From Kiritimatiellia bacterium (GTDB taxonomy: Bacteria; Verrucomicrobiota; Kiritimatiellia; CAIQIC01; Lenti-01): a stretch of DNA of 64,000 nucleotides. Shown here one piece after another: positions 38,654-47,347 of the stretch. The notes beneath the pieces were generated by a model, which saw only the letters and a program-made list of their open reading frames with translations, did no database searches and had not been told where the DNA came from. The position numbers were made by a program, and so were the translations under genes. The stretch is from contig JBFXHR010000004.1 of NCBI GenBank assembly GCA_050176815.1, positions 19,927 through 83,926 of the forward strand, written 5' to 3'. Numbering within the stretch: the first letter of the stretch is position 1; every line of letters starts with the position of its first letter.

Positions 38654-38725
38654 GCCGGGCGGCGCCTTTCCCGCTTGCGTCCGAGGGGCGGCGCGGAGCA
38701 CACTTCCATCTCAAGTACAGGAGAC

Positions 38726-40228
38726 ATGAGCTTCATGAAAACCCGTCGGATCGTCGGTGTTTTTTTTGCTTGGGGTTTGGTTGTCATTTCTTTTTCATCC
38801 GCGACAACGCGCTACGTGGACGTGTCGAATGCGACGCCGGCGGCGCCGTTCACCAACTGGGGAACGGCCGCCACGGCCATCCAGCCGGCGATTGATGAAG
38901 CGGCCAACGGCGACGAGATCCTCGTGGCGCCGGGAACATATCTGCTGGGCGGCAGCGCCGTGACGCTGCCCGTCGAAAAAACGCTGGCGCTGCGGAGCAC
39001 CCAACGCCGCGCGGCCACCATCGATGCGCAGGGGCAGAGCGCAGGGCTTTTGGCGTACGGCACCAATTGTCTCGTCGAGGGTTTTACCGTCCGCAACGGG
39101 GCGAACAGCGGCTATGGCGGCGGGATCGTGGTGGCACGGGGCTCGACGGTGCGGGACTGCCTCGTCGTCGGCAATCGCTCCGACGCCGGCGGGGGGGGCA
39201 TTGAGCTTTACGAGTATGCCACGGTCGCGGACTGCACGATTCAAAGCAACGCCGCCAATCATATCGGCGGAGGCGTCGTGTTGTACAGCGGCACCACGGG
39301 GGTGTTGCGAAACTGCACGATCGCCGACAACGTCGTGACCGGCAGCTACGGCAGCGGCGGGGGCGTGTATGTCCAGTTCGGCGGGATGGTCTCCAACTGC
39401 TGGATCGCCCACAACCGCGTCACCTCCCCGGACGGAGAAGGTGGCGGCGTCTACATGTACACCCAGGGCACCGGCCAGACGGGAACCCTCGTCAATGCCG
39501 TCGTGTACGGCAACTGGGCGGAGATCCGCGGTGGCGGAGTATATTCCATCGGGCCGGCCGGCACGCTGCAGCCCGTGATCAACTGTACGATCGTCTCCAA
39601 CGCCGCCGGTGCGGACGGAGGCGGGGTCTATGCCCAAACGACGCGCTTCATCAACGACATCATCTATTTCAATTCGGCGCCGAGCAATGCCAACCTGAAC
39701 GCAGAAGATGCGAAGCATTCCTGCGTCATCAGCAACTGCTGCACGACCTCCAACTACTTCGGCTCGAACATCACGAACGCCCCGGCCTTCGTGGATGCGG
39801 GCGCGGGGGATTTCCGGCTGGCGACGGCATCGTTCTGCATCGACGCCGGCATGACCAACGGCGCGCCGCGGACGGACGTCGAAGGCCATCCGAGGCCCTG
39901 CGTCGGCAAACCGGGCGGGCCGGCTTTGCCGGATATCGGCGCGTACGAATACGGTTTCCATTTCAATCGGATTCAAATGGTCTCCACCAACGGAGCGCAA
40001 TTCGAGTGGGACGTCCAGGACCGGGGCATCTACCGTCTGGATTTGGCGACGAATTCGGCGACGGATCCGGGGCACGTGGTTTGGCAATCCGTTGGAGGAG
40101 GAGGGTATACCAATCTTGGCATGGCGCTGGGGCAGTTCCTTGTGCACACGCAAACGGTGACGGGTTCGGGACCGATTCCGGCCGGCGCCATGTTTCGCCT
40201 GCGCATCAGCCACACCTTGGGCAAATGA
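38726..40228 (+). CDS. secreted right-handed parallel beta-helix repeat protein
   Basis: AGGAG SD; signal peptide; repeated G/N/T-rich beta-helix coils (GGGIVVARGSTVRDC, GGGVVLYSG, NCTIADN). Confidence 0.7.
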   Translation: MSFMKTRRIVGVFFAWGLVVISFSSATTRYVDVSNATPAAPFTNWGTAATAIQPAIDEAANGDEILVAPGTYLLGGSAVTLPVEKTLALRSTQRRAATIDAQGQSAGLLAYGTNCLVEGFTVRNGANSGYGGGIVVARGSTVRDCLVVGNRSDAGGGGIELYEYATVADCTIQSNAANHIGGGVVLYSGTTGVLRNCTIADNVVTGSYGSGGGVYVQFGGMVSNCWIAHNRVTSPDGEGGGVYMYTQGTGQTGTLVNAVVYGNWAEIRGGGVYSIGPAGTLQPVINCTIVSNAAGADGGGVYAQTTRFINDIIYFNSAPSNANLNAEDAKHSCVISNCCTTSNYFGSNITNAPAFVDAGAGDFRLATASFCIDAGMTNGAPRTDVEGHPRPCVGKPGGPALPDIGAYEYGFHFNRIQMVSTNGAQFEWDVQDRGIYRLDLATNSATDPGHVVWQSVGGGGYTNLGMALGQFLVHTQTVTGSGPIPAGAMFRLRISHTLGK

Positions 40229-41052
40229 TGGGATCGGGTTCGATGGCCGAAGACTTGGGTCCGGAGCAGGCGGTGCATGGGTCCCCTTGGGGCCAGATGC
40301 ACGGCGGATATTTTTCGGATCCTGCGGTCGCGCAGCCGTTGGTCGATGCGGTGCGCGACGTCTGGAGGCGAATGCGGCCGGACCGGATCGTGGATTTGGG
40401 CGGGGGCACGGGTTTCCTGCTTTCGCGGCTGCGGGTGGCCGGCTTTGGCGCGGATGCCGTCCTGGTGAATCTCGACGGCTCGGTGCCGCAGCTTTCCGAA
40501 GCCGAAAAGGCCGGGTTTGCATGCATCCGCGGCTCGGTGGATGCTTTCCGCCGCTCCGAAGCGGCGCCGCCCGGCCAGCCAACGCTGTGGGTCATGCGGT
40601 CGGTGCTGCATTACGCGGGCGAAGGCGGCCTGGACGCGGTGCTGCGGCATCTGCGGGCGCAGGCCGAGCCGGGCGAAGGCTGGGTGCACCAGACCGCGTG
40701 CTTCGAGCGGGAGGAAGACGCCGACTGCTTGAATGCGCTGTATCGAAAAATGCGCACGGGCAAATGGTATCCGACCGTCGCCGATCTGCGGGCGCGGATG
40801 GCGGCGGCCGGGTGGCGGACGGAAACCGTGCGGCCCGCGCCGCCGCTGCATCTGGAATCCGGCGATCTGGGGATCCGCTACGGATTAAACAAAGAAGACT
40901 TGGCGGCCATCCGCTCCGAAATGGAGACGGAATTCGGGGGGCGAAGTTCTACTTTTCAGACGACGTCGGCCGGATTCCATGCCGATCTGCACTACCGCAT
41001 TTTCGTCTGCCGGGCGGCGGTTCAACCCTTGCACCCGGCGGGAATTCGGTAG
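40225..41052 (+). CDS. class I SAM-dependent methyltransferase
   Basis: ATGA overlap with the beta-helix gene; VDLGGGTGFL SAM motif. Confidence 0.65.
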   Translation: MMGSGSMAEDLGPEQAVHGSPWGQMHGGYFSDPAVAQPLVDAVRDVWRRMRPDRIVDLGGGTGFLLSRLRVAGFGADAVLVNLDGSVPQLSEAEKAGFACIRGSVDAFRRSEAAPPGQPTLWVMRSVLHYAGEGGLDAVLRHLRAQAEPGEGWVHQTACFEREEDADCLNALYRKMRTGKWYPTVADLRARMAAAGWRTETVRPAPPLHLESGDLGIRYGLNKEDLAAIRSEMETEFGGRSSTFQTTSAGFHADLHYRIFVCRAAVQPLHPAGIR

Positions 41053-42650
41053 AGTCCCCCGGAAATCCGAACCAGATCGTCCAGCGAATGCGCGGACAGG
41101 AGATCCGTCGTGGCCGCGGCGGGACCGATCCCGAGATCGGCCACCGTCTTCACGATGCCGGCGGAACGCAGGGTTTCTTTCGCGGCGGCGCCGATCGACA
41201 GCCCGACGGGCGTGTCGCCCGCGACGGCCGCGACGGCCTTCTGGCGCGTAGCGCTGTCCGGGCATTTGTCGAGATAGGCGATGCCGATTTCCGTCACGAC
41301 GTGCGTGACCTGGTCGCCCGCGATCATGACCGGCGGCTCGGGGAAGATGCCGTCCTTGTGCAGTTGCTGGGCGTCGAGCTCCTCGACGAACACGGGAATG
41401 TTCTTCTTTTCGGAACGCGTGGGCGTGAGCTGGACCACCAGCTTTCGGCCGCGGAAGACCTGTTCGCGGGTGCCGCCGGCGGCGGTGGTGGCCGCCGTGT
41501 TGTGGCGGCGTCCCGGAGGCGTGCCGCCAAGGTTGGGCGCGCCGCCAAAGCCGGCAATCATGCCCTTGATGGCCGTCGACGAATTGCCGAAGCGATCGAT
41601 CTGGAGCGTCGCGCCGATGAACAGGTCGATGGCGTAAAGTCCCGCGATATGCGCGCAGCAGCGGTTGGAACGCATGGAACCGTCGGGACCGACGGCGAAG
41701 ATGTCCGGCCGCGCCTGCACGTAGTCGTCCATGCCCGGCTCGCCTCCGAACGCGTAGACGTGTTCGACGAAGCCCGCCTCGATGGCCGGGATGAGCGTGG
41801 GATGGGGGTTGAGCACCCACCGCGTCGCCACCTTGCCCTTGAGGCCGAGCTGCGCGCCGTAGGTCGGCAGCAGCAGCTCGATGGCGGCGGTGGCGTAGCC
41901 GAGGCCGTGGTTGAGCGCCTGCACGCCGTAGGGCGCGTAGATGCCCTTCAGCGCCATCATCGCCATCAGGATCTGCTGGTTCGTGATCTTGCCCGGATCG
42001 CGCGTGAAGAGCGGCTGCAAGTGGTAGCCTTCGTTCGTCACGACGATGAAATCGACCCACGACGCGGGGACGTCCACGCGCGGCAGTTGCGCCAGTTTTT
42101 TCTTCGCCTGCACGATCACGACGCCCATCTTGAAGCGCGTGGCTTCGGCGATCAACGGGGTGTCCTCGGTGTTGTTGCCGGTGTAGATGTTGCCGGCCTC
42201 GTCGCAGGCCTCGGCGACGAGGATGGCGACCTGCGGATAGAGATCCACGAAATACCGGCCGTAGAGTTCGAGATAGGTGTGGATTGCGCCGATCTTCACC
42301 TTCTTTTCGGCGGCGAGCTGGTAGAGCGCCTTGGACTGCGGGCCCGAATAGGCGAAATCGAGGCGCTCGGCGATGCCGAGGCGGAACAAATCGAGGTGTT
42401 CGTTCAGCACGAGCGTGGACTGCGTCATGTGCAGGTGGTTCACCTGCGCGGGGTCCAGCTTGACCATCTCGCGCGCAAAGAAATCGGCCTGCTTCTGGTT
42501 GTCGCCCTCGATGCAGACGCGGTCGCCGCTGCGCACGACGGCCTGCAGCAGCGCCAAGGCGTTTTCCTTGGCGACGAATTTGCCATGGGCGACGGGGGCG
42601 GCCGCGCGGACGCGGGAGAGGTAGCTGTCGCGAAGACGATCGAATTTCAT
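41022..42650 (-). CDS. malonate decarboxylase alpha-subunit-like CoA/ACP-transferase (MdcA/CitF superfamily), stand-alone
   Basis: 542 aa containing IEGDNQKQADFF, which resembles the MdcA N-terminal motif. Confidence 0.65.
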   Translation of the reverse strand: MKFDRLRDSYLSRVRAAAPVAHGKFVAKENALALLQAVVRSGDRVCIEGDNQKQADFFAREMVKLDPAQVNHLHMTQSTLVLNEHLDLFRLGIAERLDFAYSGPQSKALYQLAAEKKVKIGAIHTYLELYGRYFVDLYPQVAILVAEACDEAGNIYTGNNTEDTPLIAEATRFKMGVVIVQAKKKLAQLPRVDVPASWVDFIVVTNEGYHLQPLFTRDPGKITNQQILMAMMALKGIYAPYGVQALNHGLGYATAAIELLLPTYGAQLGLKGKVATRWVLNPHPTLIPAIEAGFVEHVYAFGGEPGMDDYVQARPDIFAVGPDGSMRSNRCCAHIAGLYAIDLFIGATLQIDRFGNSSTAIKGMIAGFGGAPNLGGTPPGRRHNTAATTAAGGTREQVFRGRKLVVQLTPTRSEKKNIPVFVEELDAQQLHKDGIFPEPPVMIAGDQVTHVVTEIGIAYLDKCPDSATRQKAVAAVAGDTPVGLSIGAAAKETLRSAGIVKTVADLGIGPAAATTDLLSAHSLDDLVRISGGLYRIPAGCKG

Positions 42651-42736
42651 GGCGCATCCTTTCGCATGGGGAGCTCGTTTTTAGCTGAAAAGGCAGTGGA
42701 AACCAACGATGAACTTGTTTCTGGGGGAGGCATGGA

Positions 42737-43300
42737 TCAGAGGAGCTTGAGCAGAGCCGCCTGCACGGGGTGGGAGGCGGGGCGAAGAACGAACGTCTTT
42801 CCCTCTTTGGCCACCCAACCGGATTCCCGAAGGATACGAAGATGTTTTTTCAGGTTGTCGGGGCCGGTCCGGACGAGGTTCGCCAATTGGTCGGCGTCCC
42901 CAGGTTGCTGCAACAGGGCGCGGACGAGAGCGACGCGTCGCTCGCAGGCCAGGCCCTTGGCCAGCCGGGCGACCTCATCGATCCCGTTGCAGTTTCCGTT
43001 CCAGGCGGCCTGCAGCGCCTTGAGCAGGGGGGCGGCCGAAGGAACCTGTGGGTCGGGAATGGGCAGATAGACCACGGATGTGCCTGGACAGGAACGTTTG
43101 AAGAAACCGCGCGATTGCAGGCGGCGGAGCTCCTGGCTGGCATCGGAAATCCCGGTTCCCAGCCGTTCCGCCAGCTGGGAGACGTTGAGACCGGGCTGTT
43201 CGAGGACGTGGCGGAGCAGACCCAATCGCGTGCGGCCGGTCAAGACGCGGCAGGTTCGCCACAGGGTGGGGTTCAGTTGCTTCATGGCGGGTCCTTTCAT
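42737..43300 (-). CDS. ArsR/SmtB-like winged-helix transcriptional regulator
   Basis: N-terminal LWRTCRVLTGRTRLGLLRHVLEQPGLNVSQLAERLG HTH; 187 aa. Confidence 0.55.
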   Translation of the reverse strand: MKGPAMKQLNPTLWRTCRVLTGRTRLGLLRHVLEQPGLNVSQLAERLGTGISDASQELRRLQSRGFFKRSCPGTSVVYLPIPDPQVPSAAPLLKALQAAWNGNCNGIDEVARLAKGLACERRVALVRALLQQPGDADQLANLVRTGPDNLKKHLRILRESGWVAKEGKTFVLRPASHPVQAALLKLL

Positions 43301-43306
43301 CGGATT

Positions 43307-43381
43307 CCGGGTATTGTTTTATAAAACAATATCCGGATTGGCAATGGGAAACCGGGTACTGTTTTATAAAACAGTACCTGG
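43307..43381. promoter_or_regulatory. pair of 30-bp near-perfect palindromes (CCGGGTAyTGTTTTA|TAAAACArTAyCyGG), candidate operator sites
   Basis: Two palindromes with centres about 45 bp apart, immediately upstream of the regulator start codon. Coordinates are +/-2. Confidence 0.5.
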
Positions 43382-43418
43382 ACGAACGGGGCGAGGGGGG
43401 GCACTGAATCCGGGAAGG

Positions 43419-46097
<2,679 letters not shown>

Positions 46098-46289
46098 GGT
46101 GATCTCCTCGAAGAAAATGTCGTTGAAAAGTACCCGCTGGCGCCGTTCGCCGCAATCAAAAGAATCGGTCTCGCGCCGCCGCAAAGGCCAGGGCATTTTC
46201 ATATATTGAACAGCCGCCGATTTCGCTGTAGGCCGAGTACCCCCACCCGGCGGATGCCCGCCCGGTCAGGGACCGGGCGGGGGCGATCG

Positions 46290-46817
46290 TCAGACATCGA
46301 ACAAGGACCAGCACTTTTTGTTGCGGCGTTTCTGGTCGTCGAGGACGAGGGCACGGATGGCGGCGGGCAGGCGGGCGCGCTGCCAGCGGCATTCGCGGCG
46401 GCCGGCGGCGTCGCGCTTGGCTTCGGGCGTTGCCGCGCGGACGGCGCGGATTGCATAGGCCGCCGCGCCCAGCTCGTGGTCGGCCATGTGCGCCACGGCG
46501 ACGGCGTGGCCGGCGGCGCGGGCGGCTTCCTTCGCGGCGCCGGGGGCCGCGCGGGCCGCGGCGTGCGCGGCATAGGCGGCCTCGCGGGCCTGCGTCATCG
46601 TGATTTTTTCCCGCGCCCAGGCGCGGGCCGCTTCGATCGCGCGCCGCGGCCGGGCGTCGCCGGGACGCGCCTGCTCGAACAGCGGCAGCACGCGCTCCGC
46701 GCACGCCGCCGCCCACGTCGCCAGCCGGCGGTGATCGGCGTCCACCAGCGTGCCGCCGCGCCGGAGGGTGATGAACCGCGGATCGCGCTTCGAAGCGAAG
46801 AGGATTTGGTTTTTCAT
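46290..46817 (-). CDS. hypothetical Ala-rich helical protein
   Basis: 175 aa; 4-nt overlap with the upstream GNAT gene. Confidence 0.4.
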   Translation of the reverse strand: MKNQILFASKRDPRFITLRRGGTLVDADHRRLATWAAACAERVLPLFEQARPGDARPRRAIEAARAWAREKITMTQAREAAYAAHAAARAAPGAAKEAARAAGHAVAVAHMADHELGAAAYAIRAVRAATPEAKRDAAGRRECRWQRARLPAAIRALVLDDQKRRNKKCWSLFDV

Positions 46818-47347
46818 CGTGCTCGGAGAACTTCAGGGTTTTGAGGCCGGGCGTCGGACTGGAGCAGGGCCATGCAGAGGGAATCTTCGGGGACGCCGTC
46901 GAGGCAGCGGGCTTGGCGTTTGCGGCCTTCTTCGACGAAGCCGAATTTGCGGTAGAGCGCGATGGCGCGGGCGTTGGCGGCGAAGACTTCCAGTTCGATC
47001 CGGGTCAGGCCTTTTTGGAAGGCGTCGGCGACGGTGGCTGCCAACAGGCGCGCGCCGATTTTTTGGCCGCGGTATTCGGGCAGGAGGCCGAGCCCGAGCC
47101 GGCCGACGTGCGTCAGGCCGGGGCGTTCGTCGCGGACGACGTCGCACCAGCCGACGACTTGGCCGTCGCGGACGGCATAGAACTGGCTCCAGCCCTTGGC
47201 GAGGACTTGGGCGATGAAGTTCCGGACGGATTCGAGCGGCGGGGCTTCCCGGAAGATCAGGTAGCGGTGCTCGCGGGCGACGACGTCCAGCGCCTGCCGG
47301 AAGCTATCGGCCAGGTCGCGGGTCGCGGGCTGGATGAGGATGTCCAT
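46814..47347 (-). CDS. GNAT-family N-acetyltransferase
   Basis: RGQKIGARLL acetyl-CoA-binding motif; 177 aa. Confidence 0.8.
   Translation of the reverse strand: MDILIQPATRDLADSFRQALDVVAREHRYLIFREAPPLESVRNFIAQVLAKGWSQFYAVRDGQVVGWCDVVRDERPGLTHVGRLGLGLLPEYRGQKIGARLLAATVADAFQKGLTRIELEVFAANARAIALYRKFGFVEEGRKRQARCLDGVPEDSLCMALLQSDARPQNPEVLRAR

Follow-up and report, generated by a model that had tools for sequence, protein, structure and literature searches.

Two AT-rich near-palindromes that stand directly in front of a regulator gene in a 64,000-nt stretch of DNA from a Kiritimatiellia bacterium (the window, meaning the whole stretch that was analysed) are predicted to be binding sites of the regulator encoded just downstream, a protein with two ArsR-type domains in a single chain, which would repress its own gene together with the MdcA-like gene that follows. 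The probability of this reading is put at about 80%. An earlier note on the same DNA had described two 30-bp palindromes with one mismatch each, and this was borne out by reading of the sequence, the arms being 94% and 93% complementary. The proximal candidate operator, O1 (CCGGGTATTGTTTTATAAAACAATATCCGG, 43307..43336), is a palindrome with one mismatch whose centre is located 36 bp upstream of the regulator ATG, and the distal candidate, O2 (CCGGGTACTGTTTTATAAAACAGTACCTGG, 43352..43381), has its centre 81 bp before the ATG and 45 bp away from that of O1; together they form two 14-0-14 palindromes at -36 and -81. The spacing of about 45 bp that the note had given holds both from start to start and from centre to centre, and the shared core that it had pointed out, TGTTTTATAAAACA, is present in both palindromes. 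Its placement of the pair 5′ of the regulator start also agrees with the sequence, in which 21 nt separate the pair from the regulator ATG at 43285 on the minus strand, the palindromes being upstream. At the same time, the pair lies 38 nt downstream of the acnA stop codon, inside the 133-nt spacer that separates acnA from the regulator gene.

The contrast between AT-rich cores and GC-rich surroundings was equally clear, as no other long AT-rich palindrome exists in the window, whose G+C content is 65%. Nineteen palindromes with arms of at least 10 bp were found in the window, and O1 and O2 were the longest and the sole AT-rich ones among them. The core TGTTTTATAAAACA occurs nowhere else in the 64 kb, even when up to three mismatches are allowed; shuffled sequence would be expected to hold 0.00 matches at two mismatches or fewer and 0.19 at three or fewer. 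Because no weaker copies of the core are present, no regulon can be defined from the window itself. The region was also searched for RNA families (43000-43700, both strands), a candidate that was rejected as Rfam returned only miRNA-precursor models with 23-40 bits against gathering scores of 83-100. The sub-threshold mir-3199 and mir-9243 matches at 43300-43385 are an artefact of the palindromes pairing into a long hairpin.

The three genes of the locus, acnA, the regulator gene and the MdcA-like gene, are all encoded on the minus strand. The upstream neighbour, outside the element itself, is the aconitase gene acnA (43419..46202), whose product matches the Pfam families Aconitase and Aconitase_C. 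The longest acnA open reading frame starts about 35 codons upstream of the point where the alignment with homologues begins (residues 21-36), and translation probably begins instead at the internal Met of MPPSFSTLKTF. Just upstream of acnA there is a gene for an Imm5-like putative immunity protein (46290-47347, minus strand; PF21805, E 9.7e-39), whose start overlaps the stop of the GNAT acetyltransferase gene directly before it. The regulator gene (42737..43285, minus strand) encodes 182 residues, and its ATG at 43285 agrees with the starts of homologues (MKQLNP or MRQLNP). A Shine-Dalgarno-like AAAGGA, read from the sequence at 43292..43297 on the minus strand, precedes this ATG by 6 nt, and GGAGG-type motifs are found at the matching position in orthologues.

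The MdcA-like gene (41022..42650, minus strand; 542 aa) begins 86 bp downstream of the regulator gene and is a likely co-transcribed target. The MdcA-like neighbour named in the earlier note was confirmed by a PF16957 match with an E value of 1.5e-229; on TIGR01110 the protein scores 728 bits, under the model cutoff of 789. Scanning of the 86-bp spacer between the two genes revealed neither an operator copy nor a terminator-like site, and the shortness of this spacer suggests that the MdcA-like gene is co-transcribed with the regulator gene. The following gene encodes a methyltransferase and is convergent, so the transcription unit most simply consists of the regulator gene and the mdcA-like gene. 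No other malonate decarboxylase subunit is encoded beside the MdcA-like gene, which is always linked to aconitase, and this orphan protein may be a CoA-transferase. Elsewhere in the window, a 517-aa Gly/Asn-rich repeat protein (38675-40228, plus strand) has a 36%-identical relative in a metagenome contig (L085:3-980, minus strand), where it adjoins an extra copy of the operator, an association that may be a coincidence.

Conservation of the palindromes was followed by scanning one genome per species for related loci, of which 168 were found and the best 80 of these 168 were kept. All of them come from PVC-group MAGs labelled Verrucomicrobiota, Kiritimatiellia, Lentisphaerae, Opitutia or Spartobacteria. 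The order acnA-regulator-mdcA is kept in 15 loci (L001-L014 and L018), and in one further locus (L015) only acnA is retained. In relation to the window proteins, AcnA and MdcA are 75-94% identical (85-94% for MdcA), whereas the regulator is merely 50-83% identical. Absence of the palindrome before orthologous regulators had been named in the earlier note as the observation that would speak against an operator; on the contrary, GTTTTATAAAAC-type palindromes were present upstream of the regulator gene in all 15 readable syntenic loci, one locus (L013) being masked with N. Most of the readable loci, twelve by one count, carry two copies, L008 and L010 carry two or three, L009 three and L012 one. 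When 12 orthologous intergenic regions were aligned, both cores were found to be invariant and the flanks to change while staying symmetric, with pairs such as GGGTAT/ATACCC, GGGGAC/GTCCCC and ATGAT/ATCAT. The centres are 42-46 bp apart in most orthologues. In all but one of 16 loci, 32-47 bp separate the proximal centre from the regulator start, the exception being L015 with 79 bp; the distance from this centre to the acnA stop varies among the orthologous loci. The near-constant distance to one and the varying distance to the other indicate that the palindromes follow the start of the regulator gene and not the end of acnA. Among the regulator-family loci collected, TGTTTTATAAAACA is confined to the acnA-linked orthologues. 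Most of the orthologous loci (L001, L004-L006, L012, L013 and L018) share a gene located about 600 bp after mdcA, which is paralogous (33-40% identity) to the gene preceding an smc-linked copy of the operator in other metagenome contigs (L084:2304-3155 and L094); it is absent from this position in the window, where the convergent methyltransferase gene takes its place.

The same alignment provided indications of where the promoter would lie. Between O1 and O2 there is a putative -35-like hexamer, TTGCCA (43339..43344, minus strand), and at the centre of O1 a -10-like hexamer, TATAAA (43318..43323, minus strand), whose role is suggested by its fixed spacing to TTGCCA. Positions T57, T58, G59 and C61 of TTGCCA are at least 90% conserved across the 12 aligned orthologous intergenic regions, and in 11 of these 12 loci the hexamer stands 15 bp before the central TATAAA (CATAAA in L011). 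A scan requiring a spacer of 16-18 bp found no sigma-70 consensus promoter, which is explained by the 15-bp spacer and by a -10-like hexamer that lacks the final T. The candidate promoter is accordingly deduced from the conserved TTGCCA and the fixed 15-bp spacing. With this arrangement, O1 would cover TATAAA and act as the occluding operator, and O2, just upstream of TTGCCA and about four helical turns away, would act as a helper site. Protein bound over the -10-like element at O1 and beside the -35-like element at O2 would block RNA polymerase. Such an occlusion of the promoter would repress both the regulator gene and the MdcA-like gene that follows it after 86 bp, until some signal relieved the repression; repression, co-transcription and control by a ligand are all parts of a model read from sequence.

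The regulator had been described as ArsR-like, which holds for the type of its domains; the description as a plain ArsR protein does not, as two ArsR-type domains are present in one chain. Two winged-helix domains of the ArsR/SmtB type occupy approximately residues 8-95 and 101-181. The Pfam search assigned a HTH_20/MarR-type winged helix to residues 13-70 and the ArsR family HTH_5 to residues 115-159, with 39.5 bits for PF01022 (HTH_5) against a cutoff of 22 and 33.8 bits for PF12840 against 27. The NCBIfam ArsR/SmtB model NF033788 scored 59.9 against a cutoff of 55 and matched in two stretches. When a profile of the family was compared with the PDB, the N-terminal half matched AntR, SmtB, NmtR and CzrA, and the C-terminal half matched HlyU, CmtR and BigR; HlyU (4k2e) gave an E value of 1.5e-08 over profile positions 86-181 and was also ranked first by Foldseek. 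In a confident AlphaFold2 model built with 104 homologues (pLDDT 93.3, pTM 0.87), each half displays the ArsR succession a1-a2-a3-aR-b1-b2-a5, and about 5 linker residues connect the two. With profile scores above the curated thresholds and a winged-helix fold, the regulator is a member of the ArsR/SmtB family, and with one chain of 182 aa it departs from the build of this family as single-domain homodimers with protomers of about 100-120 aa. Compared in register, the halves share 22% identity, and the BLASTP match between them is marginal (E 0.16), so the evidence for a domain duplication comes from profile and fold matches and not from direct similarity. Among the PDB profile and Foldseek matches there was no solved chain spanning both domains, and the literature searched contained nothing relevant on tandem or fused ArsR proteins or on Kiritimatiellota regulators. 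Inspection by eye of the sequence and alignment found the metal sites of the family (a3 CXC and a5 Asp/His) to be absent: helix a3 has no Cys in either domain and neither a5 helix has a cluster of His, Asp or Glu. Residue C12 is the only near-invariant Cys in the alignment of the regulator family. A tblastn search identified no second paralogue of the regulator in the 64-kb window.

A further link between the protein and the palindromes came from the comparison of the recognition helix with the centre of the palindrome. In the N-terminal domain, this helix (residues 47-58, SDASQELRRLQS) is near-invariant except for the two residues preceding ASQ, a constancy that appears inflated and is in part due to the collection of the loci with peptide patterns taken from the N-terminal domain and this very helix. 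The two variable residues pair with the sequence at the centre of the palindrome. SD before ASQ, the state found in the window (D48), goes with the centre TTTATAAA; PR or AR goes with TTAATTAA, PY with GTTGCAAC and AC with TTTGCAAA; and SA together with QD goes with ATTATAAT. The mutual information between residue 48 and the centre reached 1.05 bits, a value attained in none of 20000 permutations; it was calculated on 51 members reduced to 33 clusters at 65% identity, with five residue states only. Shared ancestry partly confounds this covariation, which holds at the level of the clusters and in a later test set. For this later set, proteins were picked by residue state from the list of homologues and their contigs were fetched afterwards. 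The two PY proteins (P0100 and P0105) had the centres ATTGCAAT and GTTGCAAC, the PR protein (P0111) had TTAATTAA, the SR protein (P0110) had GTTTATAAAG with an additional copy past its stop codon, and the SA..QD protein (P0077) had ATTATAAT. All 5 of the later members fit the rule, some of them being probably orthologues of members of the first set.

These observations suggest how the two domains could share the work of recognition. The N-terminal recognition helix would read the centre of each palindrome, D48 going with TTTATAAA. Among the acnA-linked orthologues, neither the N-terminal helix nor the core changes, and the outer flanks vary along with the C-terminal helix (in the window PDNLKKHLRILRE), a comparison that is descriptive. 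On this descriptive basis, we infer that the second domain may read the outer flank (CCGGGTA in the window). Two chains would bind one palindrome symmetrically, with their N-terminal domains inside and their C-terminal domains outside. The number of two chains per palindrome is proposed because a half-site of 14 bp is too long for one winged helix, and because the palindromes are near-perfect though the two domains differ. Both this stoichiometry and the assignment of the domains to the flanks are parts of the proposed model. The claim that the palindromes are an autoregulatory operator pair is thus supported, at the level of sequence, by their conservation in orthologues, by a position that tracks the regulator gene and by the covariation with residue 48. 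Two properties by which an operator can be recognised, a conserved position at the promoter of the regulator's own gene and covariation with the residues that read the DNA, were both found.

The relationship between regulator and palindrome extends beyond the acnA-linked loci. The other 64 of the 80 kept loci hold paralogues of the regulator, and at least 8 of them were found in one MAG among the 80. Their neighbours are varied housekeeping genes, for example those for ketopantoate reductase, a DEAD-box helicase, shikimate dehydrogenase and AlaRS, and nearly all of these paralogues, which lack an acnA neighbour, have an AT-rich palindrome of their own at the equivalent position. A palindrome with arms of at least 10 bp was found within 200 bp upstream in 76% of 76 members, compared with 6% of 2520 control windows drawn from the same loci. 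In 82 sites taken together, the two arms mirror each other out to position 14 from the centre, and dyad symmetry is at background (about 27%) from position 15, which indicates that the operator of the family measures about 28 bp. The palindrome differs from paralogue to paralogue, as in TAGTTGCAACTA, TTGTTTATAAACAA, ATGTTTGCAAACAT and TCATTAATTAATGA. The loci L019-L080 and L096-L102 make up this multi-paralogue family, with differing AT-rich upstream palindromes of about 28 bp whose centre is predicted by residue 48. In 11 paralogues (L032, L035, L037, L038, L046, L051, L056, L062, L070, L073 and L077), a second copy of the own palindrome is located just past the stop codon of the regulator gene and before the next gene, at +591 to +637 from the start; L098 displays the same layout, which is unlike that of the twin upstream sites of the window. 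The family amounts to about 250 clusters at 50% identity, with E values of 1e-30 or better, among 1.84 billion representatives. On balance, we lean towards the view that these regulators constitute a lineage-restricted and undescribed family of single-chain double-ArsR proteins, with several paralogues per genome and each with a private operator of about 28 bp, in which residue 48 would set the centre and the second domain is proposed to deal with the flanks.

Copies of the operator were also found away from regulator genes. Scanning of metagenome contigs for exact matches to GTAYTGTTTTATAAAACARTAC, a search that by its nature forces perfect identity of the copies, returned 15 loci. One of them is an orthologous regulator locus, another is a contig of 38% G+C whose match is probably due to chance, and the other 13 are high-GC contigs in which single copies extend to the 26-bp GGGTATTGTTTTATAAAACAATACCC with no regulator gene nearby, some of these contigs being duplicates across samples. 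Genes at the extra sites were called by Pfam matches and by codon-position G+C. One site lies between divergent trpE and thrS, another between a PaaK-like ligase gene and a divergent open reading frame, and another after mnmG. In two contigs, the site is located 77-78 bp upstream of smc, and the SMC proteins of these contigs are 91% identical while the flanks differ. The smc-linked site had suggested ScpB, a protein with tandem winged helices, as a candidate identity for the regulator, which was dropped as there was no such Pfam match. Many of the single copies of GGGTATTGTTTTATAAAACAATACCC (L081, L084, L086/L088, L089 and L094) are bordered by a run of A on one side and a run of T on the other. 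The presence of GGGTATTGTTTTATAAAACAATACCC in other intergenic regions of close relatives points to a small regulon instead of a purely autoregulatory circuit, and the regulator probably controls, as far as its sites can tell, a few genes beyond its own. The extra sites that stand beside A/T runs or gene ends may have a side-role as structural elements or terminators.

Since the palindromes lie 38 nt past the acnA stop codon and on the same strand, they could instead fold into hairpins in the RNA, by which acnA transcription would be terminated or attenuated or the 3′ end of acnA stabilised, and would then stand before the regulator gene only incidentally. The transcript of the region does fold strongly (-40.3 kcal/mol, z -4.97), an outcome of the two palindromes pairing with each other, and TTTCCC follows the distal hairpin, just as TTTT follows several of the extra metagenome copies. 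However, a scan of 42600-43600 found no terminator-like site and no run of at least 5 T, the tails are TTTCCCATT and AATCCGATG and do not provide the GC-rich stem and U tract of a terminator, and the upper half of the stems is AT-rich. A hairpin needs pairing arms, but in the orthologues the 12-bp core sequence is itself invariant, which goes beyond that need. The site tracks the start of the regulator gene rather than the acnA stop, and paralogues without acnA have their own palindromes. Two of the extra copies lie between divergent genes, where there is nothing to terminate, and this location between gene starts further weakens a role in termination. Covariation with a residue of the protein would be left unexplained as well, and a function as hairpins of the acnA transcript is considered very unlikely. 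Even less credit is given to the proposal that the palindromes are a dispersed REP- or MITE-like extragenic repeat whose association with the regulator is a side effect. Identical 26-bp copies do occur at no fewer than 8 distinct intergenic places in related high-GC metagenome contigs, but their identity was forced by the exact-match search, the 64-kb window has just two copies, and no transposase was found beside the sites examined. A mobile repeat is also at odds with orthologous positions kept in genomes that have diverged (at the regulator locus of 15 MAGs and at the smc site of two species) and with palindromes that differ in each paralogue and match the residue of its helix.

A third possibility accepts the sites as operators and concerns the sign of the regulation: the protein would be an activator or a dual regulator, acting for example from O2 and from the single smc sites, and not a simple autorepressor. 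O2 and the smc-linked sites closely precede TTG-type hexamers, as activator sites typically do, and HlyU, the closest fold match, is annotated as a transcriptional activator. In contrast, O1 lies over the -10-like element, 36 bp before the ATG, where repressors typically bind, and most of the ArsR/SmtB proteins that have been characterised are repressors (PMC8790569). Activation is judged unlikely, and O1 and O2 are best read as sites from which the double-ArsR regulator would repress its own transcription unit.

As cis elements, the palindromes are standard, a textbook operator pair of ordinary layout. What adds to them is the protein, a fused two-domain ArsR regulator without a solved counterpart and undescribed in the literature searched, and a rule relating one residue to the operator centre over dozens of operator variants found in nature; this rule can be tested directly and is a potential source of orthogonal parts. 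If the reading of the family is true, it would amount to a collection of naturally occurring repressor-operator pairs that are orthogonal to one another, and to a new build of the ArsR DNA-binding unit, with four reading heads on each palindrome. The analysis also offers an entry point to the control of transcription in Kiritimatiellia-like bacteria, which are uncultivated, and links the highly conserved orphan MdcA-like enzyme beside aconitase to a dedicated regulator, whose sites in relatives also precede smc, thrS/trpE and a PaaK-like gene.

In the ArsR/SmtB family, operators consist of 12-2-12 inverted repeats, single or in pairs, that lie close to the transcription start or over it; these are AT-rich and about 26-30 bp long, and autoregulation is frequent (PMC8790569). 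With SmtB/smtA, CzrA, ZiaR and AztR/AzuR, the regulator has in common the a1-a2-a3-aR-b1-b2-a5 fold and the layout of the candidate operator. Those proteins, however, are homodimers of protomers of 100-120 aa, whereas here two domains are fused in 182 aa. By inspection, the a3 CXC and a5 Asp/His metal sites of the SmtB/CzrA group are missing here, the palindrome is a near-perfect 14-0-14 instead of 12-2-12, and the neighbours are genes of central metabolism and not of metal resistance. The best structural and sequence matches to the C-terminal half of the regulator are HlyU, BigR and NolR, which have no metal site and bind AT-rich palindromes, as is predicted for the regulator, but, unlike it, are single-domain homodimers. 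In BigR and HlyU a pair of Cys residues constitutes a redox or sulfide switch, whereas in the regulator family C12 is the only near-invariant Cys. In their many paralogues per genome, private palindromes, predicted autoregulation and specificity probably set by a few residues of the recognition helix, these regulators resemble the radiations of TetR- and XRE-type proteins, from which they differ in their fold, in their fused two-domain build and in forming a small family of one lineage.
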